Counted from the first letter of the stretch, positions 11,486 through 61,686 are shown. The stretch: DNA of 64,000 nucleotides from Chthoniobacterales bacterium (GCA_013815325.1 JACDGM010000003.1:12375-76374), one strand, 5' to 3'. Notes: generated by a model from the sequence alone, not told the origin. Made by a program: numbers and translations.

Positions 11486-12094
11486 CTAACGATCTTCTTC
11501 CGGTAGTCTTGGGCGCGCTTCCTCAATCAACTTCCGACTCTCCGCGTCGGACAAGTAGCGGATTTGGATCACGGGTGCGGCGACAGGGTTTAGCGGCGCG
11601 CCATCCCGGCCGGTTATCTCCGAGCGGTTGACCGGCATCCCGAGGCTCAGCCGGGCGAGTGAATCGCCGATCTGAAGCATGCGTACGGCATCTCCAAAGC
11701 CCCAGCGGGCGGGTTCGCGAATGATATTCTTTCCATCCTCGCTGACTGACTCAGTTTCCAGCGGAAGGCGAGCATCTCGCGGGCCTTGGCCGCGAGGGCG
11801 AGAAACATTTGCCAGGATGTTTCCTCGACTTCGCCCTTCCGCCGTTCGCGCTCCAAGGCGAGGGCTGTTTTTGCAGCCAGGTCCGCTTCCACTGACCGCT
11901 CGTGCTCCGTGAGCTGCCATGTCCGCACGCGGGCCTTCCAGCGAAACCGTACTCCAGAGCCGCGTCATTCTGACAGTCGTCTGGCACTGTTTTGCCACTG
12001 CAGCATGAGAACGCTTTTCGCGCATTTCAGCGAAAGTGCGGAACGCAGAGTAGGCGACTGCGCTCTCGTTAGGTAATCGTGTTGTTGCGATCAT
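11486..12094 (-). pseudogene. Phage-like DNA-binding / small-terminase-like protein, apparently with two compensating frameshifts
   Basis: The N-terminus (SAVAYSAFRTFAEMREKRSHAAVAKQ...RLWS) and C-terminus (PLETESVSEDGKNIIREPARWGFGDAVRMLQIGDSLARLSLGMPV...) look protein-like. The middle of this frame is Arg/Gly/Pro junk. The overlapping frame (11647..11928) reads a plausible coiled coil (WQLTEHERSVEADLAAKTALALERERRKGEVEE...). Confidence 0.4.
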
Positions 12095-12142
12095 TGAGTC
12101 AAATTCGCGACGTGTTGCCGCGCGCGCGTTTTGTCACTATTG

Positions 12143-12977
12143 TCAGGTAAGTGTTGCATTCGTTAGGCCCTTGCTAGCGATTGAGAAGTTGCTCCGGCCG
12201 ATCCGCCGTTTGCGCAGAATTTCCGCCTCGGATTCGGCGAGCGCTTTTAATTCGTCCGCGCACCAAAGCTTTTCCAGCTCGGCCGTTTCGCGAACCAGCG
12301 TCCGAAGTTCCGGCGCGTTTTTGGCGATCTGGCCGAGATCCGTTAAGTTACCTTCGCCCTGCCACGGCAGCGTGATCGGCTCGTCGGCTTCGCGTTTGAA
12401 AAAAGCGGTGGCTGCCGGATGATTTTCTTTAATGAAATCGTGCTCTGGCGGCTAGGTCGTTACTGTGAAAGGGGTTGCTCCGATGCTCCTTCTCGCCGTA
12501 GGTCAAGCCGCGCAGTGTGGCGCGCGATTCCGCTTCCTCGCGTTGTTGACGAAGGTAGCTGTGCGAGATGCCATTCGCAGTGGCCTTCAGATAGGCCGCT
12601 AACTCCGGCTCGTTATCGCTCAGCCACATTTGCTCGGTCAGGTTGATTGAGTCTTTCGCCCAGGGATTTTTCGGTGCAACGTCAGTTATGGGGTCGCGCC
12701 AAAGTTGAGCGAGCTTCAGTTCATCGGCTGGTCGCTCCTGCCGCAAAGACGGGACATATTTCCTCAGCTCCTTCAGAAGCTCGACCGCTTTTGCAGGCTC
12801 GAAGGTTAAGCCTTCGGCTGCGTGTTTGCGCTGCCAAGTAGCGATGAGCGCGGCAAGGCCGGTTAGCTCCTTGTCACTTATGGCGTAGTGGCGCAGGCCA
12901 TGGACTTGCCGGATGAGTTCGAGAGCGTGTTTTGTGCAACGGTCGCACATCGCGAGTTCTGCTGGATCAGGTGTCAT
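12143..12977 (-). pseudogene. Hypothetical island protein, one frameshift near 12430-12450
   Basis: ORF 12429..12977 has a perfect AAGGAG Shine-Dalgarno 7 nt upstream of the ATG at 12977. A further ~95 codons without a start codon (PPEHDFIKENHPAATAFFKREADEPITLPWQGEGNLTDLGQIAKNAPELRTLVRETAELEKLW...) continue in the next frame down to TGA at 12143. Confidence 0.45.
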
Positions 12978-13026
12978 TGGGTATCTCCTTTGGTTAGTGG
13001 GTTTGGTTAGTTGGTTTTTCCGCTCG

Positions 13027-13113
13027 GCGGAATTTTTCCACTTCCACGCCCTTAAAGGGGCGCGTGGAAAAGTGGAATTCCGCTTTCATTTCCACGGAGA
13101 ATTCCGCGTGGAA
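13027..13113. promoter_or_regulatory. Iteron/operator-like cluster of six TTCCAC(G) sites inside an imperfect about-57-nt palindrome
   Basis: TTCCAC at 13036; TTCCACG at 13042 and 13090. The inverted form CGTGGAA is at 13063 and 13107, and GTGGAA at 13072. GGAATTCCGC occurs twice. The palindrome GCGGAATTTTTCCACTTCCACGCCCTTAAAGGGGCGCGTGGAAAAGTGGAATTCCGC spans 13027-13083. It lies between the ATPase pseudogene stop (13117) and the next gene start (12977). Confidence 0.5.
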
Positions 13114-13116
13114 AAT

Positions 13117-14583
13117 TCAGGCTTTCGCATAAGTTTTTGTCCTCCGGTTAAGAGTGAGAATCCGGCGTTTGACCGCTTCCGCGACCAGTTCGTAAGCACG
13201 CGAAAAACCGCACCCGGTTTCCTCGCCAATTAGCTTCACAACGGCTTTTTTCGGCAAGGCGGCTTCCGGGAAGTCCAAATCACGAATCAATCCCGCGTCA
13301 AAACCGGGGCGCTGCGGCTTGCCGCTGGCGAGCTGCTCACGCCAACTGGACACGTCGAAGTCGGGCGCGACTTCGTAAATCATGGTTTCAGGATTAAGCC
13401 GCACGGCCACGGGAACGAACTCGGGGCCGTTCGAGTTTTTGCCACAGGTGAGCACGAGAGTTTCGTTATCGTTCGCCGAGCCAGGAACGATGTTGATGAG
13501 TCCGCGCGTCCAGGTTTGGAGCATCTTCGAGTTGCGTGCGAAGCCGGTGCGTTCCAGTCCGAACGCTTTGACCGCTCCCGCTCGGGCCGGTGAGCGCATG
13601 GTGAAGAATTACAAGCGCCCGGTCAGGATTTCCGGCTTTGGAGATACGACCAAGCTCGCGCACCGTTGCCGCCATGTCCGCGTCACTGTTTAGATCGCCT
13701 ATGGTGAAGTCACGCAGAGGATCGATGCCTACAATGCCTGGGTCGTATTTCCGAATCGCCGTTTCAAGTCGGTTTGCGGCTTGCGGGTCGCCTAACGAAA
13801 GCAAGAGGTCGGCATCGGTTTCGAGAGTGTGGATGAGGAGGTTTTTTTCGACCAGTGGCCAGTCGTCCCCCGCAAAATCACGCAGCTTGCTCAGGTCGTC
13901 CTGTAGCCGGGAAAGGTTGTTTTCGGTTTGCAGAAAAAGGCAGCGTGTCCCGCGCCCGTGCGTTGGGAAGCCGCACCAATCGCGTCCGATAATGAGGGCG
14001 ACGAAAACTGGAGCAGGAGGCGCGTCTTTCCGATCCCGCCGACCCCGGCAATCACAAGCGCTTGACCTAGCGCAAGGAGCCAGGCGCCTAACAGGCAGGA
14101 GTTTTCCGCCACCGGCATGGCAAGCACTTCGGCAGCGGTGCGCACTGCAAACTCCGATGGCGGCTCCGAGTCACGGAGGCGCGCCACTGCTTCCTTGCCT
14201 GAGATTCTGTTTTCTAACAGAGCCTTACCGATTTCGCTTTCGCGGCGGGCGCGCGAAGCAGCGAGCACTTCGTCCACCGCGTATTGCAGGCTGGAGGGGC
14301 CGATGCAATCGCCACCGAGACTGTAAACCTCAGTCAATCCTGATTTGCCGCCGACTGGCTCATATTGGCCGCGTCGCTTCAATTCGCCTTGCACCGGAAG
14401 CAAATCTGGATTCGAGACCGCCCGTATTGCCTCGAAAATCATCCGATTTGTCGGGGAGGAAAAATCGTCAGGCTCAAGGTTCGGACACGGCTCGCCTCGC
14501 ATCATGAACGAGAGAATGGTTTTCTCGTGCCCATCAGTCATGGTCGGGTCTGATTGTGCCGGTGCGCGAGAGACTGCCTGCAA
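13117..14583 (-). pseudogene. DnaB-N-terminal-like + RepA/AAA_25-type P-loop ATPase (island replication/primase-helicase type), in three pieces
   Basis: Three same-strand ORFs cover it: 13891..14583 (FSSPTNRMIFEAIRAV..., P-loop VIAGVGGIGKTRLLLQ), 13466..13804 (IVGIDPLRDFTIGDLNSDADMAATVRELGRISKAGNPDRALVILHH) and 13117..13599. Pieces 1 and 3 share a frame and piece 2 does not, so there are two compensating shifts. Confidence 0.55.
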
Positions 14584-14621
14584 GTTTCCGTTCGGCTCGT
14601 TAGGCTAACCATTCGGTTTCG

Positions 14622-14856
14622 TTAGGCGCTCATCCCCATTTGTGACCGCAGGAACTCGCGGACCGACTCCATTTCGATCAGCCTGATTCCGCAGCGTGCA
14701 CCCTTTTTCTTGACGGTCACCGCCCGAATCTTTCCCGCCGCGATCAACTCGTAGGCGAAACTTCGCTTGATTGAAAAGCTCGAATTCGTGAGAATTGTTG
14801 ATCTGCTTTATCAACGCGGCGCTGGCTGAAGTGTCCATATGCACAAGAGGGCGCAC
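14622..14856 (-). pseudogene. Excisionase-family helix-turn-helix protein remnant (frameshifted)
   Basis: The start-less frame 14622..14807 reads ...SIKRSFAYELIAAGKIRAVTVKKKGARCGIRLIEMESVREFLRSQMGMSA*, an HTH_17/excisionase pattern. The only ATG (14856) is in another frame (MDTSASAALIKQINNSHEF...). The stop TAA lies inside a copy of the genome word. Confidence 0.4.
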
Positions 14857-14983
14857 GGATTCGGCGAGACATAAGGCTATAAAACTCCGCCCGCGTCCGA
14901 AGTGGCGACACGGGCGAATACAGGCGCACCTGTTATGCAGAGGTGTTATGCAATCTGCCTAGCTTCCCTCGTGCTAGAGGGAC

Positions 14984-15071
14984 CGGTGAGGGAGGGATTC
15001 GAACCCTCGGTACCCTTTTGGGGTACGGCGCTTTAGCAAAGCGCTGCTTTCGACCACTCAGCCACCTCACC
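14984..15071 (-). tRNA. tRNA-Ser (anticodon GCU), CCA not encoded
   Basis: The reverse complement folds by hand. Acceptor GGTGAGG/CCTCACC with discriminator G; anticodon stem GCGCT/AGCGC with loop TTGCTAA (anticodon GCT); long variable arm GTACCC/GGGTAC; T arm GAGGG-TTCGAAT-CCCTC. Length 88 nt. Confidence 0.92.
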
Positions 15072-15139
15072 TATCTTGCCGTCGAAGTTGCGAGAATATC
15101 GGGATCGCTCCATGCTCGTCAACCTGTCGCCACACGGTC

Positions 15140-15484
15140 ATGCGCTTCCCTTCGCACCTTCCACGTTTTCGCCTAACGATCCTTGGTAGTGGCTCCTGCT
15201 TCTTCCTTTTTTGCGGGTGCGCAGCGCCCGCGCGGCCGGCGAAGCCGCCTCCGATCGTCCACCCGATCGTCGGCGAGATTGCGATCGTGGATGAAGAGGA
15301 GCGTTTCGTCCTGATCGATCTCGGTTCCAATCTCTATGTCCCGGAGCCGGGCGCGCTTCTGCGCTCCACCAATCGGGCCGGCGGGACCGCTCATCTAAAA
15401 GCATCGCTGGAACAAAAACGGCCATTTGTCGCGGCCGACATCATCGACGGCAAGCCGGCGGTGGGCGATGAAGTGGTGCGATGA
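15140..15484 (+). CDS. Small hypothetical protein, possibly a lipoprotein
   Basis: The hydrophobic N-terminus ends in ...FFLFCGC (weak lipobox). Its stop overlaps the moeA start (ATGA), suggesting coupling. No family recognised. Confidence 0.45.
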   Translation: MRFPSHLPRFRLTILGSGSCFFLFCGCAAPARPAKPPPIVHPIVGEIAIVDEEERFVLIDLGSNLYVPEPGALLRSTNRAGGTAHLKASLEQKRPFVAADIIDGKPAVGDEVVR

Positions 15485-16662
15485 CGAGCGAGACGGAAGC
15501 GATCGCGGCGGTCCTCGCGCGGGTGCAGTTGCTGCCGGGCGCGCGGGTGCCGCTCATCGAGTCGTTAGGCCGATTTTCCGCGCACGATCTTTGGGCTCAG
15601 AGAGCGCTGCCGCCCTTCGATAATTCCGCCATGGATGGCTACGCCGTGCAGGCGAAGTCATGCCGCGGCGGAGCACGCTTGCGGGTTATCGGCGAACAAC
15701 CAGCCGGGGTCGATCGCGGCCTAACGATGGGAGCGGCCGAGGCGATCCGCATTTTCACGGGGGCGCGGCTCCCGGCCGGAGCCGATGCGGTCATCATGCA
15801 GGAGGAGGTGATGCGCGAAGGTGACGTGATCGTGGCCCGATGCGACGTGGAATCTGGAGAGTTCATCCGGCGACAGGGTTGCGATCTCGCCGCAGGGCAG
15901 AAGATTCTCGCCGGCGGCGACCAGATCGTGGCGCAGAACATCGGGCTGCTCGCTGCGCAAGGAATGGCGGAGATCGACGTGGGCGCGCTCCCCCGAGTCG
16001 CAATCGTCTCCACCGGAGATGAGCTGGCGCGGGCGGGAGCAATACCGCTGCCTGGGCAGGTCTTTGAGAGCAACTCGGTGATGCTGCACGCCCTTGCGCT
16101 CGGCGCCAGTGCGAAGGTTGTCATGGTCGAGCAGGCGCCCGACGCGCTCGAGCAGTTGACGGAAACTCTCCGCCACGGTTTGGAATGCGATGCCTTGATC
16201 GTGAGCGGCGGCGTTTCCGTCGGCGAGCACGATCTGGTGCGGCCGTCGTTAGGCGCACTCGGCGCGGAGATCGCTCTTTGGCGAGTGGCAATAAAGCCGG
16301 GAAAGCCCTTCCTCTTCGGCCGTGCGCATGGCTGCTCCATTTTTGGGCTCCCGGGAAATCCTGTTTCGGCTTTTGTCACATTTCTGAAGTTCGTTAGGCC
16401 GGCGCTGCGGAAGATGGCGGGCGCGTCGGGGGAAAACCTCGGCCTGCGCGCGGTGCCGGCGCAGATCGCGAGCGATCTTAGCAATGCGGGCGATCGCTCC
16501 CATTATTTTCGCGGAATCCTGCGGGAGGGCCAATTCATACCTAGCGGTCTTCAGGAATCGCATGCGCTTTTCGGCCTGAGCCGCGCCAATGCGCTCTTGC
16601 GCCTGGCCCCCGGTGACCAACTATTGCGAGGCGCGCCGGTCATGATTGAGACTTGGGATTAA
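15481..16662 (+). CDS. moeA: Molybdopterin molybdotransferase
   Basis: MoeA motifs LPPFDNSAMDGYAV, GGVSVGEHD and LPGNPVSAFV; 393 aa. Confidence 0.9.
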   Translation: MTSETEAIAAVLARVQLLPGARVPLIESLGRFSAHDLWAQRALPPFDNSAMDGYAVQAKSCRGGARLRVIGEQPAGVDRGLTMGAAEAIRIFTGARLPAGADAVIMQEEVMREGDVIVARCDVESGEFIRRQGCDLAAGQKILAGGDQIVAQNIGLLAAQGMAEIDVGALPRVAIVSTGDELARAGAIPLPGQVFESNSVMLHALALGASAKVVMVEQAPDALEQLTETLRHGLECDALIVSGGVSVGEHDLVRPSLGALGAEIALWRVAIKPGKPFLFGRAHGCSIFGLPGNPVSAFVTFLKFVRPALRKMAGASGENLGLRAVPAQIASDLSNAGDRSHYFRGILREGQFIPSGLQESHALFGLSRANALLRLAPGDQLLRGAPVMIETWD

Positions 16663-16778
16663 TCGTCGCTCCGCGGGAAAAAGAAACACGCGGGCGCGAG
16701 GCGCAATGCGTTTCTATAAAGTCGGCGGCTCCCCGGATGGCGCCGCTGGTGTTACAAACTCAACCAAAAGGAAATATC

Positions 16779-17327
16779 ATGAAATTAGACTCACTTCGCA
16801 CATTATGGATCGAAGAGATGCGCGATCTCTACAACGCGGAGAACCAGCTCCTCAAAGCCTTGCCCAAGATGGCCAAAAAAGCGGCCGCGCCCGAATTGAA
16901 GCAAGCCTTCCAAAGCCATCTCGAGGAAACTAAAACCCACGTCGAACGACTCGACCAAATCTTCGATACCCTCGGCAAGAAACCGACCGGCAAAACCTGC
17001 AAAGCCATGAAAGGCTTGGTCGAAGAAGGCTCCGAGATGATGCAGGAAACCGGTCCCTCCTCCGTGATCGACGCCGGCATCATCGCCGCGGGTCAGCGGG
17101 TTGAGCATTACGAGATGGCCGGCTACGGCGTCGTCCGCACTTTTGCCTCGATCCTCGGTGAGGACGAAGCGGAGGGTCTTCTCCAGGAGACGCTCGACGA
17201 AGAAGCTGCTGCCGATGAGAAACTGACCGAGATCGCCGAGAGCACGGTCAACGACGAAGCGGACAACGAAGCCGGCAACGAAGAGGACTCGCCGATGGCG
17301 GCCAAGCAGTCGCGCGGTCGTCGTTAG
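16779..17327 (+). CDS. Ferritin-like DUF892 (YciE/YciF family) stress protein
   Basis: MKLDSLRTLWIEEMRDLYNAENQLLKALPKMAKKA...HLEETKTHVERLDQIF. An AAAGGAAA Shine-Dalgarno lies just upstream of the ATG at 16779. I shortened it from track ORF 16653 on that basis. It has an acidic tail. Confidence 0.8.
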   Translation: MKLDSLRTLWIEEMRDLYNAENQLLKALPKMAKKAAAPELKQAFQSHLEETKTHVERLDQIFDTLGKKPTGKTCKAMKGLVEEGSEMMQETGPSSVIDAGIIAAGQRVEHYEMAGYGVVRTFASILGEDEAEGLLQETLDEEAAADEKLTEIAESTVNDEADNEAGNEEDSPMAAKQSRGRR

Positions 17328-17355
17328 GCACCTTCCCTACAAGCGAAAGAAATTC

Positions 17356-17395
17356 GCCACCGCGATCCGCGCGATCACGGTGGCGTTTTCGTTTT
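17356..17395 (+). terminator. Probable intrinsic terminator
   Basis: Hairpin GCCACCGCGATC-CGC-GATCACGGTGGC (one mismatch) followed by GTTTTCGTTTT. Confidence 0.55.
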
Positions 17396-17417
17396 CCGGA
17401 TGGGAACGTAGCGGCAC

Positions 17418-19064
17418 ATGGGGCTTTCAGAATACAAGAAAAAGCGGGATTTCTCCGTCACGGCCGAACCGTCTGGCGCTAAAAAACCGCGGCCTAAAGC
17501 CGTCGCCGGCGCCTCCCGTTTTGTCATTCAAAAACATGACGCGAGCCGGCTGCATTACGATTTCCGGCTGGAAATGGACGGCGTCCTGAAATCGTGGGCG
17601 GTGCCGAAGGGCCTACCGTGGGAGCGCGGCGAAAAACATCTCGCGGTCGAGGTCGAGGATCACCCGATCGAGTACGAAGATTTCGAAGGCATCATCCCGG
17701 CGGGAAACTACGGCGGCGGCACGGTCATGGTCTGGGACCGCGGCAATTATTTCGTGCACGGCGAAAAGCCGCTCGAAGCGCTGGCCGCCGGCCGGCTGCA
17801 CATGGTGCTCGAAGGGACCAAAGCAAAGGGAGATTGGGCGCTCATCCGCACTCGCAGCGACGGAGGCAAAAACCAATGGCTCCTTTTAAAGAGCGACGCC
17901 GAGGTCAAGCCGATCTCGAAGAAACGCGATGACGAATCGGCCGTGACCGGACGGACGATGAAGCAGATCGCGCAAGATCGCGACGCCGAATGGGAATCAA
18001 ATCGCGGCGACGACAAAAAGAAACCGAAGCAGGCCGCCCAGCCGACGATCGCCGCACCGCTGCTCCCAGCCGCCTTGCCCGCCGGCAAACCGCGCTTTAT
18101 TGCGCCGATGAAGCCGCAACTGCGCGAGACGGCGCCGGCGCAGGGCGGCTGGATTTACGAGCTGAAGTTCGACGGCATTCGCGCGCTCGCCATCAAGCAA
18201 GGTGGGAAAGCAAAGTTGATTTCGCGGAACGAAAACGACCTAACGAAAAGGTTCGAAGAAGTCACCGGCGCCGTGGCCGCGCTCCCGGGGAAAGATTTCG
18301 TGCTCGATGGCGAAGTGGTGGCGCTCGACGAGGCGGGCCGATCCTCTTTTCAGCTTCTTCAGGCGCGCGAGATGGAAGGCCGGCGAACGCCTCTCTACTA
18401 TTACCTCTTCGATCTTCTCCAGCTCGAGGGCAAAGACCTGAGCGGCCTTCCCCTAACGACTCGCAAGGAAGCGCTCCAACAACTTTGCGAAGGCGCGGCC
18501 GATCCGATCCGTTACTCGGATCAGCTCGGTGACAATCCCGGGAAACTCCTCCAGGAAGTGAAGCGGATGGGACTGGAAGGACTCATCGGCAAACTCGCCG
18601 ACTCCGTTTACGAGCCGGGGCGGCGGAGCGGCGCGTGGATCAAGCTCAAGTGCGTGGCCGAGCAGGAATTTGTCATCGGCGGTTACACCCCGCCCGCGGG
18701 ATCGCGCAAGCACTTCGGCGCACTGCTCGTCGGCTACTACGAAAAGAAAAAGCTGCTTTTCGCCGGCAAAGTCGGAACCGGCTTCGACACAAAACTGCTC
18801 GCCGCGCTGCACAAGAAATTCGAGGAGGAGGCGCGGGAGGATTGTCCCTTCGCTGATCTCCCCTCGAAAGAGGGAGGCAAATGGGTGTTCGGGATTACCC
18901 CGGTGATGATGCGGAAATGCCATTGGGTGAATCCCGTCTTTGTTGCCCAGGTGAAATTCGCGGAGTGGACGCGCGACGCGAAATTGCGGCAACCGGTTTT
19001 TCTCGGTTCGCGCGAGGATAAAGACGCGAAGCATGTAGAGCGCGAGACGGCCAACTCCGGGTAG
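17418..19064 (+). CDS. ligD: ATP-dependent DNA ligase LigD (phosphoesterase + ligase domains, no polymerase domain)
   Basis: A PE module (RFVIQKHDASRLHYDFRLE...LKSWAVPKG) is fused to a ligase core with adenylation motif YELKFDGIRAL. The stop TAG lies in the arm of the palindromic element at 19056. Confidence 0.85.
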   Translation: MGLSEYKKKRDFSVTAEPSGAKKPRPKAVAGASRFVIQKHDASRLHYDFRLEMDGVLKSWAVPKGLPWERGEKHLAVEVEDHPIEYEDFEGIIPAGNYGGGTVMVWDRGNYFVHGEKPLEALAAGRLHMVLEGTKAKGDWALIRTRSDGGKNQWLLLKSDAEVKPISKKRDDESAVTGRTMKQIAQDRDAEWESNRGDDKKKPKQAAQPTIAAPLLPAALPAGKPRFIAPMKPQLRETAPAQGGWIYELKFDGIRALAIKQGGKAKLISRNENDLTKRFEEVTGAVAALPGKDFVLDGEVVALDEAGRSSFQLLQAREMEGRRTPLYYYLFDLLQLEGKDLSGLPLTTRKEALQQLCEGAADPIRYSDQLGDNPGKLLQEVKRMGLEGLIGKLADSVYEPGRRSGAWIKLKCVAEQEFVIGGYTPPAGSRKHFGALLVGYYEKKKLLFAGKVGTGFDTKLLAALHKKFEEEAREDCPFADLPSKEGGKWVFGITPVMMRKCHWVNPVFVAQVKFAEWTRDAKLRQPVFLGSREDKDAKHVERETANSG

Positions 19065-19209
19065 CGCATGCGTCTCGCGTGCTGGTTGCAGTGTTCCACC
19101 GCAACGAACTTTCTTCCCGGTCTGCCGCGTCAGAAAACTCCGGCCCTCAAGGAAAGTTCGCGACGGCGGAACGCCTTCGCCAGCACGCGAGACGCATGCG
19201 CTACCCGGA
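19056..19209. repeat. About-154-nt palindromic (MITE/REP-like) element, family 1, complete copy
   Basis: The arms TCCGGGTAGCGCATGCGTCTCGCGTGCTGG (19056-19085) and its exact reverse complement (19180-19209) are 30 nt. Pairing continues imperfectly inward (...CGAACTTTC / GAAAGTTCG...). Confidence 0.85.
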
Positions 19210-22380: not shown

Positions 22381-22397
22381 CCGCACGAGATCAGCAA

Positions 22398-47076: not shown

Positions 47077-47083
47077 CGTAGAG

Positions 47084-50666: not shown

Positions 50667-51163
<497 letters not shown>

Positions 51164-51167
<4 letters not shown>

Positions 51168-53292: not shown

Positions 53293-53310
53293 GCGACTTG
53301 CCGCACCGCA

Positions 53311-53433
53311 TTGTCATCCTGAGCCGCGAAGACGGCGAAGGACCTCACAAGCGTCTTTGTGCGTTAGGAGCAAATCACAATCTGAAGTGGCCTGCGAGAT
53401 CCTTCGCTGCGCTACGCCGGCTCAGGATGACAA
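53311..53433. repeat. Inverted-repeat element, family 2 (GTCATCCTGAGC... type)
   Basis: TTGTCATCCTGAGCCGCGAAGACGGCGAAGGACCTC faces GAGATCCTTCGCTGCGCTACGCCGGCTCAGGATGACAA. Confidence 0.75.
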
Positions 53434-53480
53434 ATCACGAAGGGCAGCGGCAATAAAGAGGAGGACCGACTCGTTAGGCA

Positions 53481-55079
53481 CTAATCCTGGTGCGCCAGAC
53501 AAGCCCGGATGAAGCCGCTGAAAAGCGGATGCGGCTTGTTCGGCTTGCTCTGGAATTCCGGGTGATACTGGCAGGCCAAAAACCAGGGGTGATCCCGCAG
53601 CTCGATCAACTCCGCGAGCGATCCATCAGGCGAAGTGCCGCTAATGAGAAAGCCTTTTTCCTCCATCTGCTCCCGATATTTCATGTTGAACTCATAGCGG
53701 TGCCGATGCCGCTCGAGCACTTCGTCGTTCCCGTAAATTTTCTGCGCCAGCGTATCCTGCACGATCTTTGTCGGCCAGGTCCCGAGCCGCATACTTCCGC
53801 CTTTCTTGCGGATCTTCCGTTGCTCATCGAGCAGGCAAATCACCGGCTCAGCGGTATCCTTGTCGAACTCGATGCTATTCGCCTCTGCGATGCCGCAGAC
53901 GTTTCTCGCGAACTCGATCGTCGCCACTTGCATGCCGAGGCAGAGGCCGAGAAACGGCACGTTCTTCTCGCGCGCGAATTGCGCCGCCAGAATTTTTCCT
54001 TCGACCCCGCGCTCGCCAAACCCGCCCGGGATAAGCACGCCGGCCACATCTTTGAGGTGACCATCCACGCCACCCCCGAGCGATTCGGCATCGATCAGGC
54101 GCAGATCAATCCCGCAATCGTGACTCGCGGCCGCGTGCGTGAGCGATTCGTAAATGCTTTTGTAAGCATCCTGCAGCTCAATGTATTTGCCGACGACCGC
54201 GATCTTCACCTGCTTTTTCGGATTGATGACACGGCTCACAAATTTCCGCCAATCCGTTAGGTCGGGCACTGGCGCGTCGATGTGCAGCAGCTCGCAGACG
54301 AGCGCGTCGAGTCCTTCTTCATGCAACATCAGCGGCATCTCGTAGATCGTGTGCGGCACGTCGCGCGCCTCGATCACCGCATTCAGGCCGACGTTGCAAA
54401 ACATCGAAAGCTTTTGCCTGACATCGTCGTCGAGCGGGCGCTCCGTGCGGCAAATCAGGACCTGCGGTTGCAGACCGATCTCGCGCAACTTGGCGATGCT
54501 CTGCTGCGTCGGCTTGGTCTTGAGCTCGCCCGCCGCGCGGATAAAGGGAATGAGCGTGACGTGCATGTTGACGACGTTTTGCGGCCCGACTTCGAGGATG
54601 AATTGCCGGATCGCTTCGAGAAACGGCAGACCTTCTATGTCGCCCGTGGTCCCGCCAATTTCCGTGATGACGATGTCGACTTTTTTCGGGTCGGCCACCT
54701 GGCGGATGCGGGCCTTGATCTCGTCTGTGACGTGCGGGATGACCTGGACGGTTTTGCCGAGGTAATCACCGCGGCGTTCTTTCAAAATGACGCTCTCGTA
54801 AACCTGTCCGCTCGTTAGATTGTTGTTCCGTGAGAGGACGCAGTTGGTAAAGCGCTCGTAGTGGCCGAGGTCGAGATCGGTCTCTGCGCCGTCATTGAGG
54901 ACATAAACTTCACCGTGTTGAAACGGGTTCATCGTGCCCGGATCGACGTTAAGATAAGGATCGAATTTTTGCAGCACGACGCGCTGGCCGCGCAGCTCGA
55001 GCAAAGTGCCGAGAGAAGCGCCGGCAAGACCTTTGCCTAACGAACTGACCACGCCACCTGTTACAAAAATATATTTCAT
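53481..55079 (-). CDS. pyrG: CTP synthase
   Basis: MKYIFVTGGVVSSLGKG; GATase GLCLGMQ; 532 aa. Confidence 0.95.
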   Translation of the reverse strand: MKYIFVTGGVVSSLGKGLAGASLGTLLELRGQRVVLQKFDPYLNVDPGTMNPFQHGEVYVLNDGAETDLDLGHYERFTNCVLSRNNNLTSGQVYESVILKERRGDYLGKTVQVIPHVTDEIKARIRQVADPKKVDIVITEIGGTTGDIEGLPFLEAIRQFILEVGPQNVVNMHVTLIPFIRAAGELKTKPTQQSIAKLREIGLQPQVLICRTERPLDDDVRQKLSMFCNVGLNAVIEARDVPHTIYEMPLMLHEEGLDALVCELLHIDAPVPDLTDWRKFVSRVINPKKQVKIAVVGKYIELQDAYKSIYESLTHAAASHDCGIDLRLIDAESLGGGVDGHLKDVAGVLIPGGFGERGVEGKILAAQFAREKNVPFLGLCLGMQVATIEFARNVCGIAEANSIEFDKDTAEPVICLLDEQRKIRKKGGSMRLGTWPTKIVQDTLAQKIYGNDEVLERHRHRYEFNMKYREQMEEKGFLISGTSPDGSLAELIELRDHPWFLACQYHPEFQSKPNKPHPLFSGFIRACLAHQD

Positions 55080-55834
55080 GGAAGAAAATCGATCGGACGT
55101 GCGGCCGGCGGAGCAACGAGGAGGAGGCGTTCGATCGCCCGGGCCTCTGCCGGCGTGTCGACTCCCGGAGAGCCGCCTTTGGTCACGACCACGTGAATCT
55201 TTACGCCATTCTGTAGCGCGCGCAATTGTTCCAACCCTTCCGCCTTTTCGAGCGGCGACGGCCGCCAGCGGACGAAACGCAAGAGTAACTCACGGCGGTA
55301 CCCGTAGATGCCTTGATGGCGAAAATAAGCGGCCCTTTCACGAGCGAAGGGGATCGGACTGCGGGAAAAATATAGCGCGCAATTTCGCCGGTCGAGGACA
55401 GTTTTGACCTGGTGCGGCGACTGCGCGTCGGCCGCATTCTCGAATGGATGAACGGCGGTGATCATCTCAATTTGCGGATCGCGCTGCATTTGCCTAACGA
55501 GGCGATCGATCAGCTTTGGGTCAATCAGCGGCTCGTCGCCCTGGATGTTGATGAAGTGCGGAACATCCCGCAATTTTTTGGCCACCTCGGCGATTCGATC
55601 GGTCCCGCTGGTGTGCTTCGAACTCGTTAGGCTGACTTCCGCTCCCCAGTCGAAAGCCGCTTCAGCGATGCGCATGTCGTCGGTCGCGATAATGACGGAT
55701 GCGAGCGTCTTCGCACGGCGGCAGCGGTCCCAGACGTGTTGAAGTAACGGCTTCCCTGCGATCCAATGGAGCGGCTTGCCCGGGAAACGGGTCGAGCCCC
55801 AACGCGCGGGAATGATGCCGGCGGTTTTCGTCAT
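55076..55834 (-). CDS. kdsB: 3-deoxy-manno-octulosonate cytidylyltransferase
   Basis: GIIPARWGSTRFPGKPL, NIQGDEP. Confidence 0.88.
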   Translation of the reverse strand: MTKTAGIIPARWGSTRFPGKPLHWIAGKPLLQHVWDRCRRAKTLASVIIATDDMRIAEAAFDWGAEVSLTSSKHTSGTDRIAEVAKKLRDVPHFINIQGDEPLIDPKLIDRLVRQMQRDPQIEMITAVHPFENAADAQSPHQVKTVLDRRNCALYFSRSPIPFARERAAYFRHQGIYGYRRELLLRFVRWRPSPLEKAEGLEQLRALQNGVKIHVVVTKGGSPGVDTPAEARAIERLLLVAPPAARPIDFLP

Positions 55835-55924
55835 GGGCGGCAGCCTAACAGGGCAGGGCCACGCTTTCCAACGGACCGGGCAGTCTCGCGCCCTATTCTG
55901 GACGCATGTCCAGTTTCCCTATTC

Positions 55925-56470
55925 CTACTCGTGTAAGCCGAGAATGATCTCGGCCGCTGCGGACAGATCTTCCGCCATCCAGTTCGGCGCGGCGTGGCTC
56001 TCCCTAGCGCCGTAACCGGTTCTCACCAGAATCGTGCGCACTCCAGCATTACGTCCGCATTCGATGTCGATCGCTTTGTCTCCGATGAAAAAGCAACGCG
56101 CCAGGTCAAGATCGTGATCACGTTGCGCTTCCAGCACCATGCCCGGCGCAGGCTTGCGCCGATCTGTCGCGAGATCAGGCCGATCAGCACAAAAGTAAAC
56201 GGCGTCGAAAGTTGCGGGCAGAACCGCGCGCGCGACTTCCGCTTCCACGAGGCGGTATTGCGCTTCAGTGAAATACCCGCGCCCGATACCCGCCTGATTC
56301 GAGATGACAATGAGCCTGTAACCTTTCGCCCTTAGCCGTTGCAGGGCTTCGGGAACACCGGGAAAAATCTCCACCGCTCTCGGGTCGGCGCAGTAATTGA
56401 CCTCGCGCATCAGTGTCCCGTCGCGGTCGAGAAAAACCGCCGCCGCGGATTCGTTAGGCGCCATTATCAT
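55925..56470 (-). CDS. gmhB: D-glycero-D-manno-heptose 1,7-bisphosphate phosphatase (HAD-IIIA)
   Basis: AVFLDRDGTL, ISNQAGIGRG, FIGDKAIDIECG. Confidence 0.8.
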   Translation of the reverse strand: MIMAPNESAAAVFLDRDGTLMREVNYCADPRAVEIFPGVPEALQRLRAKGYRLIVISNQAGIGRGYFTEAQYRLVEAEVARAVLPATFDAVYFCADRPDLATDRRKPAPGMVLEAQRDHDLDLARCFFIGDKAIDIECGRNAGVRTILVRTGYGARESHAAPNWMAEDLSAAAEIILGLHE

Positions 56471-57464
56471 CCTCGAAACTGGCGATCAACTCCGCCGGTG
56501 TGACCGTAGCCGTGCCTAGTTTCGCCACCACCACTGCGCTAGCGTGATTGGCAATCTCCGCCGCTTCGAACGGGGACGCGTCGCAGCAAAGCGCCAACGT
56601 AAAAAGCGCGATCGCGGTATCGCCCGCGCCCGAAACGTCAAAGACCTGTCGCGCCTTCGTGGGGATATGGTGCGGCGGCTCTCCACGTTCGAAGAGCATC
56701 ATCCCTTGCTCGCCTAACGTGATTAACAAGAGCCGGGTGTCCCAAATTTCGAGCAGCTTCGCGCCGGCTTCGAGCAGCGCGGCGTCATCCTGCGGCGGAT
56801 CAACCGGATCGGTCGCAGGAAGACCCGCCGCCTGCAACGCTTCGCTCCGGTTGGGTTTAATCGCGGTGATGTTCTTCCAAGGAAGCGACTGGCGCGGATT
56901 AGGATCGGCGGTGACGATTTTCGCGGCGGCGTTGATCTGGGCGGAGAGTTGCCTGACGAGATCGGCACTGAGAAAACCCTTGCCGTAATCTTCGAAAATA
57001 ACGGCGTCCAATTCCGGCAGAATGGCGCGGAGGCTGAGCGAGATTTTGTCAATCTGCGATGGCGTCGGCTCGCGAAATCGCTCGCGATCGACTCGCACCA
57101 CTTGTTGATGCCGGGCCACAATCCGCGTCTTCACGATCGTGCGGAAATCGGGATCCTGGAGCACGAGCGCGGTATCGATTCTCCGCTCTCGCAAAAGCCC
57201 GAGCAGCTGTTCTCCCCCCGCGTCGAGGCCGACCGTGCCGATAACCGCGACGCCCTCGATGAACTCCCGCAGATTGCGCGCGACATTGGAGGCGCCGCCG
57301 GGGTAGGAAGATTCACCTGTCACCTCGACCACCGGCACCGGCGCTTCGGGTGAGATGCGCCCGACTTTGCCCCAAACAAACTCATCGAGCATGAGGTCGC
57401 CCACCACCGTGACGCGTTTGCCGGCGGCACGTGCGAGGATCTCATGCAAGCGTTCCAGTTTCAT
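56454..57464 (-). CDS. hldA: D-glycero-D-manno-heptose-7-phosphate kinase (RfaE domain I, PfkB family)
   Basis: VTVVGDLMLDEFVWGKVGRISPEAPVPVV; DVSGAGDT. Confidence 0.8.
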   Translation of the reverse strand: MKLERLHEILARAAGKRVTVVGDLMLDEFVWGKVGRISPEAPVPVVEVTGESSYPGGASNVARNLREFIEGVAVIGTVGLDAGGEQLLGLLRERRIDTALVLQDPDFRTIVKTRIVARHQQVVRVDRERFREPTPSQIDKISLSLRAILPELDAVIFEDYGKGFLSADLVRQLSAQINAAAKIVTADPNPRQSLPWKNITAIKPNRSEALQAAGLPATDPVDPPQDDAALLEAGAKLLEIWDTRLLLITLGEQGMMLFERGEPPHHIPTKARQVFDVSGAGDTAIALFTLALCCDASPFEAAEIANHASAVVVAKLGTATVTPAELIASFEDDNGA

Positions 57465-57631
57465 AAGAAGCGACCTCCGCCCGGCTACCGCGCGGGCAAT
57501 GCCGCCGCCGAAAGGGTTTGCCGCGATTCCAGATCACTGCAAGGTATCGCGATTTGTGCGGCTGAAACGTTCTGCATAAACTAGCCAACTAATCCTGAAT
57601 ACCTTGTTGAAATCAATAGTCGAAGCCGCGG

Positions 57632-58426
57632 ATGAGATCTTTCTTTAACCTTTTTTTAGCTGGCATTTGGGTAGCGAGCGTGGTCCAGGCGAAGGCGGCG
57701 GATGCTCCGCGGCGCATCGATGTGAAACGGCTTTCCAAGACGATCGAGGACGTGGTTGTGCCTTTGCCTAACGAAATCTTCGGAGCGCTGAACAAGCTCG
57801 ACAGCGTGAACTGGAAGGAGTTCGTGCGCACGGACAAAGGAAGCAATTTTACGGAGCGCCCGCGCATCGCGCTGCTTCTCGGGGCGACAATCGCGGACGG
57901 CTTCATCGCGGTCCAGGCCGAGGACGCTCCGAGCGTGAAGGAGATCGGCCAGCGGGTGGTGAACCTGGCCAAGGGCATCGGCGTCGGCAACTCGATTGTG
58001 CCTCACGCCAAGGCGATCACCGAGGCAGCGGATCGGCGCGATTGGAACGGCGTGCGGCAGGAGCTGGATCGCACGCAGAACAGTGTGCAACAGGCGATGA
58101 ATGAAGTGCACGACGAAAAGCTTTCGCAGCTCGTTAGTCTGGGCGGCTGGCTGCGCGGGACGCAGGTCCTCACCTCGGTGGTGGATCGGCATTTCTCTGC
58201 CGACGGCGCGGAGCTGCTGCATCAGCCGGACCTGCTGGAATATTTCCAGCGCAAACTGGCGAACATGCCGGAGTTCAATGTTCCTTTACTGGGCCAGATT
58301 CGAAATTCTCTTGTGGAAGTGAAACCGCTGATCGAGGCCCAGAGTCCGATTTCCGCGGCCTCGGTGAAGAAAATCCACCAGATCACGAGCCGGCTGGACG
58401 AGAGGATTGTAACTCGGACGCCATGA
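57632..58426 (+). CDS. Secreted hypothetical protein
   Basis: Signal peptide MRSFFNLFLAGIWVASVVQAKA. No family recognised. Coupled to the next ORF. Confidence 0.6.
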   Translation: MRSFFNLFLAGIWVASVVQAKAADAPRRIDVKRLSKTIEDVVVPLPNEIFGALNKLDSVNWKEFVRTDKGSNFTERPRIALLLGATIADGFIAVQAEDAPSVKEIGQRVVNLAKGIGVGNSIVPHAKAITEAADRRDWNGVRQELDRTQNSVQQAMNEVHDEKLSQLVSLGGWLRGTQVLTSVVDRHFSADGAELLHQPDLLEYFQRKLANMPEFNVPLLGQIRNSLVEVKPLIEAQSPISAASVKKIHQITSRLDERIVTRTP

Positions 58427-58884
58427 CTTCCATGCGCCCAGATGTTTCCACGACGCGCCGCGTCGCCTTTCTTTTTGCGGCGGCCCTGGCGCTGCAGGTT
58501 GCGGCTTCGCGTGCCTCGGTCGATGACGCGCATTCCTTCGCGCTGGAATCGGCCGAGCCTTATGTCAAAGAAGGCTACCAGGTGCGCGAGGACTATTGGG
58601 GGGGCGACCTCGGAGTGGGCGAGAAAAAGGCGGTTCGGCAGCAGTTATTCAAAGGAAACGAATACTGGTTCTGGATGGGAACCGAAGTGGAGCGGGCAAA
58701 GGTCTCCGTGCATATCTACGACGCGGACGGCAAGCTGGCCGAGCAGACCGACAGTTGGCAGAAAGGCCACTTCGCCGCGGCGCATCTCGTTCCGAAAAGT
58801 ACGGGCAGTTATTTCGTGATCGTGGCGGTGGATAGCTCGCCAGAGGAGCGCACGCACTGGGCGCTGGTTTACGGGTTTAAGTAG
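58423..58884 (+). CDS. Secreted hypothetical protein
   Basis: Signal-like RRVAFLFAAALALQVAASRA. The ATGA start overlaps the upstream stop. Confidence 0.55.
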   Translation: MTSMRPDVSTTRRVAFLFAAALALQVAASRASVDDAHSFALESAEPYVKEGYQVREDYWGGDLGVGEKKAVRQQLFKGNEYWFWMGTEVERAKVSVHIYDADGKLAEQTDSWQKGHFAAAHLVPKSTGSYFVIVAVDSSPEERTHWALVYGFK

Positions 58885-58903
58885 GCTGCGGGGAAGAAGA
58901 GGA

Positions 58904-58988
58904 GCCACGGATTAAACACGGATGAAACGCAGATAAGCAGGGATCGCAGCCCTCTCTTATCTGTGTAAATCTGTGTCCATCTGTGGCC
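58904..58988. repeat. Low-complexity hairpin, family 3
   Basis: GCCACGGATTAAACACGGATGAAACGCAGATAAG faces CTTATCTGTGTAAATCTGTGTCCATCTGTGGC (imperfect). Confidence 0.65.
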
Positions 58989-59059
58989 CTTCCCAGCCCT
59001 CGAGGTTTGACACCTCCCCCCGGGGCACTATCCTGCGCGCCGGATGTTCCCGCGGCGAG

Positions 59060-60043
59060 ATGACTGAAACGCGCACGCTCCAATTTGAAAACGCGCGCGC
59101 CGTGCAGGCGCTCTACGCCAATGATCTCAAATTGCTCAAGAATCTCGAAGAATCGTTAGGCGTGAAAGTCACCACGCGCGACGGCTGGATCAAGGTCGAG
59201 GGCGAACCAGCGCAGATCGAGAAAGCGGAACGCGTTTTCACCGAGCTGGAGAACGCACGGCAACGTGGCACGGATATCCAGCGGCACGAATTTAATTATG
59301 CGCTTAACTCTGTGAACGAAGCCCGCGAAGACAATCTTGGCGACCTCGTCGCGACCAAGATCGTAACCTCGACCAGAAAACCGCCGATCGTCGCCCGCAC
59401 TTTAGGTCAGCGGCATTACCTCGAGGCCATCCAAACTCACGACATTGTATTCGGAATCGGCCCGGCGGGGACCGGCAAGACTTATCTCGCTGTTGCCATG
59501 GCGGTCTCGGCCTTGAAAAAAGAGCAGGTCGATCGCATCATCCTCACCCGGCCCGCAGTGGAGGCGGGCGAAGCGCTTGGATTTTTGCCGGGGGATTTGC
59601 AGCAAAAAATCACGCCTTATTTGCGCCCGCTCTACGATGCGCTGCACGATATGCTCGAGCCGGAAGAGCTGGAGCGTTTCGTCGCGCGCGAGACGATCGA
59701 GATCGCCCCGCTCGCTTACATGCGCGGCCGCACCTTGAGCAACGCCTTCGTCATTCTCGATGAAGCGCAAAACACCACGCGCGAACAAATGTTCATGTTC
59801 CTGACCCGCATCGGGCCGCGCTCCAAATGCGTCGTGACCGGCGATGGCACCCAGATCGATCTCCCGCCTAACAAACGCTCCGGACTGCTCGAAGCGCTCC
59901 AGGCACTCAAGGATGTGCCCGGGATCGGCTTCGCTTATTTCAACGATCGCGATGTCGTGAGGCACGAGCTCGTCCGCGCGATCATCAATGCCTATCAGTT
60001 ACACCGTTCGCCCGCCAATACGGGCGGCTCGGGCCGGAAATAG
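59060..60043 (+). CDS. phoH: PhoH-like ATPase
   Basis: Walker A GPAGTGKTYLAVAMAV, ILDEAQN. Start set at the ATG at 59060 (MTETRTLQF). Confidence 0.88.
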   Translation: MTETRTLQFENARAVQALYANDLKLLKNLEESLGVKVTTRDGWIKVEGEPAQIEKAERVFTELENARQRGTDIQRHEFNYALNSVNEAREDNLGDLVATKIVTSTRKPPIVARTLGQRHYLEAIQTHDIVFGIGPAGTGKTYLAVAMAVSALKKEQVDRIILTRPAVEAGEALGFLPGDLQQKITPYLRPLYDALHDMLEPEELERFVARETIEIAPLAYMRGRTLSNAFVILDEAQNTTREQMFMFLTRIGPRSKCVVTGDGTQIDLPPNKRSGLLEALQALKDVPGIGFAYFNDRDVVRHELVRAIINAYQLHRSPANTGGSGRK

Positions 60044-60048
60044 CACCG

Positions 60049-61686
60049 ATGTTCGACTTCCTGCGCCGCACCCAGCTGGTTAAAAAAGGCCTCGCCTCAG
60101 GCAAGAAAAGACGGCGGCGTCCCTCGAATGAAATCCTGCGTAACCTCGAGCACGCGCCTTGGATGAAGATCGTCATCTTCGCCGCCTTCATCGCCGGCTT
60201 GGCCTCGCTCATCTTTAGCGGGCAACAACCTGAGCCGACGAAAAACTTCGTGATTGCGTTGCTCTTTTTCGTCACCGCAGTGGCGCAGCTTTGGATCAAT
60301 CAGCCCAAGACTTTTCTGCGCAATTCACGCGTTTTTCTCGTCTTCGGCATCATTTTCTTTCAACTCGCGATTACCCGGCTGCTCCTCGTCTTGTGCAACA
60401 GCGGCCTCTTCGTTCTGCTCAAGCCGGAGACGGCCTGGCTGATCGCGCCTTATGCTTTCGCGCCCCTCGTCCTCTGCGTGCTCCTCGGGCGCAATCACGG
60501 CCTTTACGGTGCTGTGTTCGTTAGTCTGTGGGGTAGCATCCTCGGCAACAAAATGGATGCGCCGATGCTTGTGAACGGCCTCATCAGCGGCTTCACCGCG
60601 GTTTATCTGACGCTGCAGGTGCGCCGCCGCAGCCGCCTCATTCGCGCGGGGCTTTGCGTCGGGCTTGCCATCTGGCTACTCTCGCTCACCTTCGGGCTCA
60701 TCGGTCCAATTAATCTTTTCAACCCGGGCGCGACCGATTGGAGCATGATCGGTCTTCAGAGCGCCCTCGCGATCGGGAATGGAATCGTCACGGCGATGCT
60801 GGTGGGCGGTGCGCTGCCCATTCTCGAGCATTTGTTTCAAATCACGACCGACATCTCCTGGCTCGAAGCCTCTGACTTGAATCACCCGCTCCTGCGCCGG
60901 ATGACCATCGAAGCACCCGGCACTTATCATCACAGCCTCGTCGTCGCGAACCTTGCCGAATCAGCCGCCGAAGCGATCGGCGCCAACGCCACGCTCTGCC
61001 GCGTCTGTTCGTATTTTCACGACGTCGGGAAACTCGTGAAGCCGGAATATTTCACCGAGAACATGAACTTCGAACGAAACCCCCACGACGATCTCGCGCC
61101 GACGATGAGCGCGCTCATCATCATCGCGCACGTCAAGGAAGGAGTCGATCTCGCCCTTAAGCACGGCCTTAATCAAGAGGTCATTGATGTTATTCAACAG
61201 CATCACGGCACGTCGCTCGTCTTTTACTTCTACAAGCGCGCCCTGCAGCACCTCGAAGACGCGCGCGCCGGCGGCAAGATCATGAAGATGCGCGAGGAAG
61301 ACATCCCGGAGGTTTCGGAGGAAAACTTCCGCTACAGTGGGCCTCGGCCGCAGACCAAAGAGAGTGCTATCATCAGCCTCGCCGACATGGTGGAAAGCGC
61401 TTCGCGCAGTCTGGAAAAACCGACTCCGGCGAAAATCGAGCAACTCGTGAATGACTTGATCGACCAACGGCTGGCCGACCATCAGCTCGACGAATGCGAA
61501 CTGACTTTGCGCGAGCTGCGCACCATCGCCGAGCGCTTCCGCTTTACCCTCATGAATATGCTCCACACCCGTATTGCCTATCCGAAGGAAGGCAAGGCGA
61601 CGAGCGGACGCGCGGAAGGCGAACGCCCCGGCGTCATCATGGGAACGAAACGACCGGCCTCCGCGCCGCCGGTCTCGGCCGCCTAA
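60049..61686 (+). CDS. 7TM-HD membrane phosphohydrolase (PgpH/YqfF-like)
   Basis: Multi-TM N-terminal half, then an HD domain (HHSLVVANLAE...YFHDVGK). Confidence 0.8.
   Translation: MFDFLRRTQLVKKGLASGKKRRRRPSNEILRNLEHAPWMKIVIFAAFIAGLASLIFSGQQPEPTKNFVIALLFFVTAVAQLWINQPKTFLRNSRVFLVFGIIFFQLAITRLLLVLCNSGLFVLLKPETAWLIAPYAFAPLVLCVLLGRNHGLYGAVFVSLWGSILGNKMDAPMLVNGLISGFTAVYLTLQVRRRSRLIRAGLCVGLAIWLLSLTFGLIGPINLFNPGATDWSMIGLQSALAIGNGIVTAMLVGGALPILEHLFQITTDISWLEASDLNHPLLRRMTIEAPGTYHHSLVVANLAESAAEAIGANATLCRVCSYFHDVGKLVKPEYFTENMNFERNPHDDLAPTMSALIIIAHVKEGVDLALKHGLNQEVIDVIQQHHGTSLVFYFYKRALQHLEDARAGGKIMKMREEDIPEVSEENFRYSGPRPQTKESAIISLADMVESASRSLEKPTPAKIEQLVNDLIDQRLADHQLDECELTLRELRTIAERFRFTLMNMLHTRIAYPKEGKATSGRAEGERPGVIMGTKRPASAPPVSAA

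Follow-up and report, generated by a model that had tools for sequence, protein, structure and literature searches.

The word and its copies in the window

The 64,000-nucleotide stretch of a Chthoniobacterales bacterium (GCA_013815325.1, JACDGM010000003.1:12375-76374) analysed here, hereafter the window, encodes among others a MoeA protein, DUF892 and DUF883 proteins, a PilT/PilU-type ATPase and a Sua5/TsaC protein (Table 1), and throughout these genes and the DNA between them a single short word, GCCTAACGA, is dispersed, consisting of a heptamer core, CCTAACG, preceded by G and followed by A (reverse complement, TCGTTAGGC). The core occurs 87 times (46 copies on the plus and 41 on the minus strand), compared with 3.9 +/- 1.7 copies, and at most 8, in dinucleotide-preserving shuffles, and it is mostly present in the full nine-letter form; 78 copies lie in or at genes and 9 are intergenic. 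When all the window copies are aligned, G precedes the core in 65 and A follows it in 75, and the flanks outside the nine letters show no conservation, which identifies a bare word and not a piece of a longer repeat. In the genes of the window the core is read as Leu-Thr (27 copies), Pro-Asn-x (19, one of them doubling as a TAA stop), x-Leu-Gly (17) or Val-Arg (9), and it provides six TAG and two TAA stops, a third TAA, that of a 41-residue open reading frame (ORF) at 14622, being counted among the 9 intergenic copies.

The source genome of the window (4.15 Mb, 209 contigs, 59% G+C), to which the counts below refer unless stated otherwise, contains 2,772 copies of GCCTAACGA and 4,033 of the core. 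The word is the most frequent 9-mer of this genome, with about three times the copies of the runner-up, CGCCGCCGC, and stands 58-fold above an order-3 Markov expectation that is itself inflated by the word. The two orientations are represented by 1,444 and 1,328 copies, and orientation is hardly related to GC skew across contigs (rho 0.05), with only a mild heterogeneity that is tied to gene strand; a replication polarity like that of Chi or of the FtsK-orienting polar sequences (KOPS) can be ruled out, since there is no orientation skew. Short spacings are under-represented (204 gaps below 100 bp, 316 expected), and 25 gaps exceed 8 kb where 1 would be expected. Single-base variants indicate a strict centre, CTAAC, and tolerant edges. 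According to a gene set of 3,449 genes (80% coding), obtained with an ORF caller built for this work and in-frame hexamer scoring, 76% of the copies are located fully within genes and 17-24% are intergenic; intergenic DNA holds 481 copies versus 5.4 expected (89-fold, or 4.5 as a natural logarithm), these densities being approximate because the intergenic class includes some missed genes.

Table 1. Copies of the word and associated features in the window, followed by the Vsr loci on other contigs of the source genome; L001, L003 and L059 are loci of relatives
Feature	Location	Strand	Gene or context
Field of core copies (87)	1..64000	both	
Word-poor stretch	3523..12160		no full 9-mer, three bare cores only; island-type genes
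Bare 7-mer core, TAG	11485..11491	+	end of doubtful 202-residue ORF 11486..12094 (-)
Word, TAA	14620..14626	-	end of doubtful 41-residue ORF 14622..14747 (-)
Ser-Leu-Gly (TCG-TTA-GGC)	15563..15569	-	in MoeA gene 15481..16662 (+)
Further copies in MoeA gene	15720; 16247; 16392		Leu-Thr; Ser-Leu-Gly; Val-Arg
Core, CGT-TAG-G	17322..17328	-	TAG 17325-17327, stop of DUF892 gene 16653..17327 (+)
Pro-Asn-Glu (CCT-AAC-GAn)	19629..19635	-	in gene 19201..20160 (-)
Leu-Thr (C-CTA-ACG)	36661..36667	+	L001: C-CTC-ACG; likewise at 38606 and 52602
Core, TAG stop	37849..37855	-	TMEM175-like gene 37132..37854 (+); word kept in L001
Core, TAG stop	44834..44840	-	DUF883 gene 44549..44839 (+); L059 and L003: CGC-TAG-G
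Core, TAG stop	48233..48239	-	PilT/PilU-type (PilU-like) T2SSE ATPase gene 47084..48238 (+)
Core, TAG stop	53287..53293	-	Sua5/TsaC gene 52300..53292 (+); L001: TAG kept, CTG for CGT before it
Core, TAA stop	56452..56458	-	PfkB-kinase gene 56454..57464 (-); L001: TGA at same position
Core, GCC-TAA-CGA	61682..61688	+	TAA 61684-61686, stop of 7TM-HD gene 60049..61686 (+)
Vsr and C5-methyltransferase	C174:4102-5483		
Vsr and C5-methyltransferase	C62:3877-7894		
Vsr and C5-methyltransferase	C114:11353-17704		

Codon usage and reading frames

An earlier reading of the window, made from the sequence alone, had held that inside genes the word appears in four readings only, that these require disfavoured codons, and that the word seems therefore to be preserved at the level of the DNA in spite of codon preference. 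All the peptides that it quoted are reproduced by translation, namely GNLT at 26, GLTM at 15720 and NDLTK and LPLTT in the LigD gene for Leu-Thr, LPNE at 19629 and SPND at 20966 for Pro-Asn-x, ESLGR at 15563, PSLGA at 16247 and RSLGG at 20827 for Ser-Leu-Gly, and KFVRP at 16392 and IVRR at 21048 for Val-Arg. The restriction to four readings is also true, but it is forced and not informative, because the two other frames read GCC-TAA-CGA and T-CGT-TAG-GC and consequently contain stops. Likewise, the presence of CTAA/TTAG in the word makes a rare codon (TTA, CCT, CTA or AGG) unavoidable in each of the four open readings. The codons in question are indeed disfavoured: outside the word, CTA and TTA represent 3.2% and 3.1% of leucine codons, AGG 4.2% of arginine codons and CCT 11% of proline codons, and yet the share of each codon that falls inside the word is 19% for CTA, 17% for TTA, 15% for AGG and 12% for CCT.

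The extent to which the word is used where the protein would allow it is far from what amino-acid strings and normal codon usage explain. It encodes 549 of the 973 Ser-Leu-Gly strings (56%; 5.4 expected from codon usage, log-odds 5.4), 623 of the 841 x-Pro-Asn-[Asp/Glu] strings (74%; 25.9 expected, log-odds 4.5), 502 of the 873 [SCRG]-Leu-Thr strings followed by an Ann codon (57%; 5.0 expected, log-odds 5.5) and 430 of the 702 [FLIV]-Val-Arg strings followed by a Cnn codon (61%; 2.5 expected, log-odds 6.1). In the four frames and on the two strands, this use is 24- to 171-fold above the codon-usage prediction, by which 0.4-3% of the strings would be in the form of the word, and it is unusually even, with 9-mer counts of 623 (Pro-Asn-[Asp/Glu]), 549 (Ser-Leu-Gly), 501 (Leu-Thr) and 431 (Val-Arg) per frame. 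Since the rare codons are not equally common outside the word, nor is the frame distribution a product of composition, the conclusion of the sequence-only reading stands, and a maintenance of the word on the DNA level against codon usage is strongly supported.

Differences from relatives at word sites are often single-base. In particular, at three Leu-Thr sites the window has C-CTA-ACG where L001 has C-CTC-ACG, CTC being the commonest leucine codon, and the alignment of these sites shows a direct synonymous swap between a rare and the commonest codon. The genome encodes tRNA-Leu(UAA), tRNA-Leu(UAG) and tRNA-Arg(CCU), the cognates of TTA, CTA and AGG, among 47 tRNA genes that are nearly all single-copy; such a tRNA set points to weak translational selection, and the codon cost of the word is probably small. 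In this genome ARAGORN also reported a tRNA-Sec(UCA) and one tRNA-like gene whose anticodon has four letters (gaaa) and could not be assigned.

Stop codons

The word had further been proposed to supply the stop codons of nine ORFs, TAG at 17327, 37854, 44839, 48238 and 53292 and, on the minus strand, at 11486, and TAA at 61686 and, on the minus strand, at 56454 and 14622. By coordinate, all nine are correct. As to the genes that they end, seven carry Pfam domains, whereas the ORFs 11486..12094 and 14622..14747 have no Pfam match and neither is predicted by the hexamer gene model, so that both are doubtful as genes. That the word supplies these stops is descriptively true, but the order of events is the opposite, since relatives too have a stop there: at orthologous stops they carry CGC-TAG, CTG-TAG or TGA, and it is an existing stop that seeds the word, which is no termination device. 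The copy at 56452-56458 is kept in 7 of 9 relatives; it also performs a double duty, as it provides both the TAA stop of the PfkB-kinase gene and a Pro-Asn-Glu near the start of an overlapping ORF (55925..56470, minus strand).

Genome-wide, the core covers the stop of 8.1% of the genes (137 TAA and 129 TAG in 3,301 complete genes; 8.6-8.7% in the high-confidence tiers), and a metagene profile shows 114 and 112 8-mers on two exact stop offsets, versus about 1.3 per nucleotide elsewhere. The share of in-frame stops that lie in the word (TAA 13.7%, TAG 12.9%) is the same as that of out-of-frame TAA (11-15%) and TAG (15-18%) inside genes. Among genes ending in alanine, 100 of 421 close with GCC-TAA-CGA (0.8 expected, log-odds 5.1), and among those ending in arginine, 94 of 470 close with nnT-CGT-TAG-GC (0.2 expected, log-odds 6.3); these values match those of the open frames (4.5-6.1) and of intergenic DNA (ln 4.5), and therefore indicate no special property of stops.

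The overall stop usage (TGA 39%, TAA 31%, TAG 30%) is practically that of G037, a word-free member of the same family (37/32/31%), and a word-driven shift towards TAA or TAG can accordingly be ruled out; these proportions of TAG and TAA are high for a genome of 59% G+C and, being shared with G037, reflect a trait of the lineage. Arginine is C-terminal in 14.2% of the proteins and represents 7.1% of residues proteome-wide, partly owing to the word-borne CGT-TAG ends. Protein truncation through word stops was considered and rejected, since of eight testable cases four keep the same end, one is shorter and three are longer, like the controls. In the first 30 nucleotides after stops the word is about twofold enriched in both orientations, without frame preference or hairpin partner; this excess just after stops may reflect the least constrained DNA.

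Effects on proteins and turnover among relatives

The peptides encoded by the word are inflated in the proteome. Ser-Leu-Gly occurs 973 times, versus 481-695 for permutations of the same residues, Pro-Asn-Asp 366 times (95-172 for permutations) and Pro-Asn-Glu 475 times (101-157). When the proteome is compared with that of G037 and with word-poor Chthoniobacterales loci, PN[DE] reaches 76 per 100,000 residues versus 22 in these word-free or word-poor relatives, [SCRG]LT followed by the compatible residues 79 versus 22-28, and SLG 88 versus 51-54, that is, an inflation of 1.7- to 3.5-fold, while reversed control peptides show no difference. In 131 orthologue pairs between the source genome and G037 the overall identity is 67.1%, and at word-coded residues it is 36% for Pro-Asn, 50% for Val-Arg, 59% for x-Leu-Gly and 62% for Leu-Thr; the exact peptide is already present in the G037 orthologue at only 15-43% of the sites. 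This low identity, together with the rarity of a pre-existing peptide, indicates that the residues encoded by the word are poorly conserved ones and that its creation often took an amino-acid change. When 13 related loci from the same genus or clade (74-82% nucleotide identity) are aligned, 91 of 173 word cores (53%) are kept at the orthologous position, versus 21% for control 7-mers in the same alignments. The G037 sample shows no dominant dispersed word of its own.

Distribution in the lineage and in possibly foreign DNA

Each of the 18 species sampled in the genus has the word, with 976-4,336 copies. Over 36 genera of the family, which belongs to Chthoniobacterales (Verrucomicrobiota), its number is graded between about 13 and about 4,300; in 12 sampled sister families of the order, it does not exceed the control count. 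Within the source genome, its density falls to 0.22/kb in the lowest decile of genes by hexamer score, versus 1.1-1.3/kb in the top half. Four contigs, C91 (46.3 kb), C196 (22.6 kb), C97 and C114, contain zero or one copy, C91 and C196 having none; these contigs may derive from mis-binning, from plasmids or from recent acquisition, and the word could serve as a marker of nativeness for these metagenome-assembled genomes (MAGs). The word-poor stretch of the window (Table 1) holds an endosialidase-chaperone tail-fibre-like gene and a PATR-repeat gene (8335-11383), and a DnaB-N remnant (13891-14583) is situated just past it, where full 9-mers resume.

A second word in the same family

In other genera of the family a second, unrelated word, AAGATCGACA, that is, (A)AGATCGACA, is hyper-abundant, with at most 4,653 copies in 2.9 Mb, as derived from locus L002, a sample of genome G057 (L105-L118) and family-wide counts. 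In L002, GATCGACA occurs 15 times within 21 kb (about 4,958-19,585). This second word is at background in the source genome of the window (19 copies), and none of the 15 other families of the order has its 9-mer, AGATCGACA, above background. One genus, g39, holds both words, in 4,653 and 1,803 copies that are independently dispersed. The second word is stop-free in all six frames and uses all of them, very unevenly (from VDL with 107 and KID with 91 down to CRS with 3), and KID and VDL are inflated 4- to 9-fold in the proteome rich in it; in the same sample, the four open frames of GCCTAACGA are even, with 26-34 copies each. Two further candidates for such dialects in other Verrucomicrobia, in loci L008 and L052, proved to be tandem repeats and not dispersed words, with arrays of 6-nucleotide CCTACG units (L008, 14647-14725) and of 9/18-nucleotide GACAAGCAG-type units (L052, 523-845).

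Origin of the frame and stop pattern

The log-odds are the same, between 4.5 and 6.3, in all six frames and in intergenic DNA, and the force behind them is blind to reading frame. The best overall explanation, in which we place good confidence, is that GCCTAACGA is a lineage-specific, hyper-abundant word pushed by such a frame-blind force on the DNA level, in the manner of an uptake-like drive, and the frame and stop pattern is very probably a by-product of it. Under this explanation, sites close to the word would tend to turn into the word and then stay, and purifying selection would purge those copies that place TAA or TAG within a gene, so that in genes only the Ser-Leu-Gly, Pro-Asn-Asp/Glu, Leu-Thr and Val-Arg readings would survive. 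The two stop-bearing readings would survive only at gene ends, where a stop is needed and where an existing TAA, TAG or TGA together with a C-terminal alanine or arginine codon could be converted into the word. Word-bearing DNA from relatives, preferentially taken up and then recombined, would spread the alleles that create the word. The balance of the two strands, the gap spectrum, the paucity of copies in genes of atypical hexamer usage and the strict centre with tolerant edges are features typical of known uptake sequences. By analogy, the force most likely resembles the molecular drive of uptake sequences of the Neisseria or Haemophilus type, and DNA uptake as its actual source stands, in our judgement, at an even chance.

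Several observations weigh against uptake. The organisms are uncultured MAGs. Profile searches of the source genome find ComEC, DprA, PilT/PilU-type ATPases and two secretins, but these are near-universal genes, and ComEC, encoded by 59 of 61 genomes of the family including word-free ones, does not discriminate. A receptor of the ComP type, which binds the DNA uptake sequences (DUS) of Neisseriaceae, has no match above the cut-off in this genome, the two sub-threshold matches to PF16732 being to a generic pilin N-terminus, and ComEA is not found, HHH_3 giving sub-threshold matches only. Inverted pairs of the terminator type are not enriched either, with 17 convergent and 33 divergent pairs (50) versus 63 direct pairs within 60 bp. 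Finally, the occurrence of two unrelated words side by side in this family, and even within a single genome, would also fit mechanisms other than uptake; we know of no precedent for coexisting unrelated words among the dialects of DUS or of the uptake signal sequences (USS) of Pasteurellaceae. The HHH_3 match that was examined as a possible ComEA lies in a radical-SAM gene and was discarded; this protein with an HHH motif adjoins a uracil-DNA-glycosylase-like protein (C167:60031-62478), and the two form a putative DNA repair or modification pair.

The frame-blind force could also be ordinary selection for an intracellular role, the word being the site of a nucleoid or repair protein or a Chi-like 'self' tag for a nuclease or defence system, in which case the frame and stop pattern would still be a by-product. 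Such a role would be in agreement with copies that are more evenly spaced than random and with the fact that no uptake receptor was identified in the searches of the source genome, and two words in one genome would be easily accommodated if two proteins had a site each. Nevertheless, we regard it as unlikely: the replication-oriented skew of Chi, KOPS and other architecture words is absent, no known Chi comes near the density of this 9-mer, about one copy per kb, in some genera of the family, whose housekeeping machinery is the same, the word does not rise above background, and there is no known candidate protein. A sequence-specific repair or gene-conversion bias, either of the very short patch (VSP) type acting with a methyltransferase or an upkeep like that of the highly iterated palindrome HIP1, is suggested by three Vsr genes, unusually many for one genome, each located 0.3-5 kb from a C5-cytosine methyltransferase gene on the same contig (Table 1), and by the variants at word positions 2 and 3, where C-to-T changes (35 and 37) are rarer than C-to-A changes (161 and 92), as repair of T:G mismatches would give. 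VSP effects are about 1.3- to 2-fold on 4- to 5-mers, too small when compared with 60- to 170-fold on a 9-mer; moreover, the word is non-palindromic, unlike HIP1, one of the Vsr/methyltransferase pairs is on a nearly word-free contig, and the search for Vsr found it in only 16 of the 61 family genomes, those richest in the word among the ones searched (G056, G033, G068, G087, G057 and G080) giving none. As there is no co-variation with the word among the 61 genomes, Vsr-dependent repair was rejected as the driver, and a repair bias as a whole appears quite improbable.

The exact placement of so many 8-mers on stops, together with the twofold excess in the 30 nucleotides past them, could suggest a functional module of gene ends, that is, a selected stop context or a terminator, the copies inside genes being secondary. 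Against this proposal, three quarters of the copies are fully inside genes, the log-odds at stops equal those of the open frames, the word takes in out-of-frame TAA and TAG at least as often as in-frame stops, inverted pairing is lacking, and relatives have plain stops at the same sites; it is close to refuted, and we consider it highly improbable. An origin in base composition, in codon usage or in selection acting on the peptides SLG, PNE/PND, LT and VR is favoured by nothing more than LT and VR being common dipeptides, and is refuted, with a practically negligible probability left to it, by the excess of copies in the window, by the enrichment in four frames and in intergenic DNA, and by the absence of peptide inflation in word-free relatives.

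Comparison with known systems

The closest parallels to the lineage-specific word pushed by a frame-blind drive are found in uptake sequences. The USS (9-bp cores, Hin-type AAGTGCGGT and Apl-type ACAAGCGGT), for which we know of no receptor in Pasteurellaceae, are also non-palindromic 9-mers present at about one per kb on both strands and restricted to a family. They have strong frame effects, inflate tripeptides, occupy poorly conserved residues and are scarce in recently acquired genes (Findlay & Redfield 2009, PMC2817400); the siting at poorly conserved residues, often at the price of an amino-acid change, was described there for DUS as well. The word of the window shares the frame effects, the tripeptide inflation, the poorly conserved sites and the scarcity in genes of recently acquired type; it differs in its unrelated sequence, in belonging to another phylum (Verrucomicrobiota) and in lacking flanking AT tracts and terminator pairs. 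Its four open frames are used near-evenly despite the rare codons, whereas the frame use of USS and DUS tracks preferred codons, and its tripeptide inflation reaches 3.5-fold, compared with about 2-fold for USS.

The DUS (GCCGTCTGAA and its dialects) are likewise hyper-abundant and common to related species, at levels that vary by genus, and their hosts have, as the source genome does, type IV pilus machinery, ComEC and DprA. Stop-containing frames of DUS are rare within genes, and Pasteurellaceae and Neisseriaceae are still given as the families with uptake sequences (bioRxiv 10.1101/2025.10.24.684340). The differences concern the ComP_DUS domain, which is not above the cut-off here, the intergenic share, 17-24% for the word and a majority for DUS, about half of them in terminators, and the relationship between variants, since DUS dialects differ by 1-3 bases whereas AAGATCGACA of sister genera is unrelated to GCCTAACGA and can coexist with it. 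In a literature search, neither word was found in a relevant sense, nor any link of uptake sequences to Verrucomicrobia. HIP1 of cyanobacteria (GCGATCGC) is comparable in its DNA-level upkeep inside genes against codon expectation, at up to several copies per kb and with no established mechanism, but it is a palindrome with methylation sites, whereas GCCTAACGA is asymmetric and is tracked by neither methyltransferase nor Vsr. Words of the Chi and KOPS type are 8-mers that are likewise over-represented and recognised as DNA by a DNA-processing protein, but they are strongly skewed with replication and 5-10 times rarer.

Biological significance

The equal log-odds across frames and non-coding DNA provide a measure of how strongly a force on the DNA level acts against codon usage and amino-acid conservation, a force able to visibly reshape a proteome and its C-termini, and no special function has to be assumed for the frame and stop pattern. 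More tentatively, and at somewhat less than an even chance, one family of soil Verrucomicrobia may possess two unrelated self-recognition words, occurring singly, together or not at all, and spread by a frame-blind drive that would represent either an independently evolved uptake specificity or another conversion mechanism; such a drive would overwrite more than half of the compatible codon strings, triple some tripeptides and rewrite the last codon and stop in 8% of the genes. To our knowledge, sequence-specific DNA uptake is established in two proteobacterial families only. If the word is indeed an uptake sequence, it would be a third, independent case, in a dominant uncultured lineage of soil, and would imply frequent gene exchange within the clade in soil, provide a marker of native versus foreign or mis-binned DNA in MAGs, and offer a handle for genetic tools.

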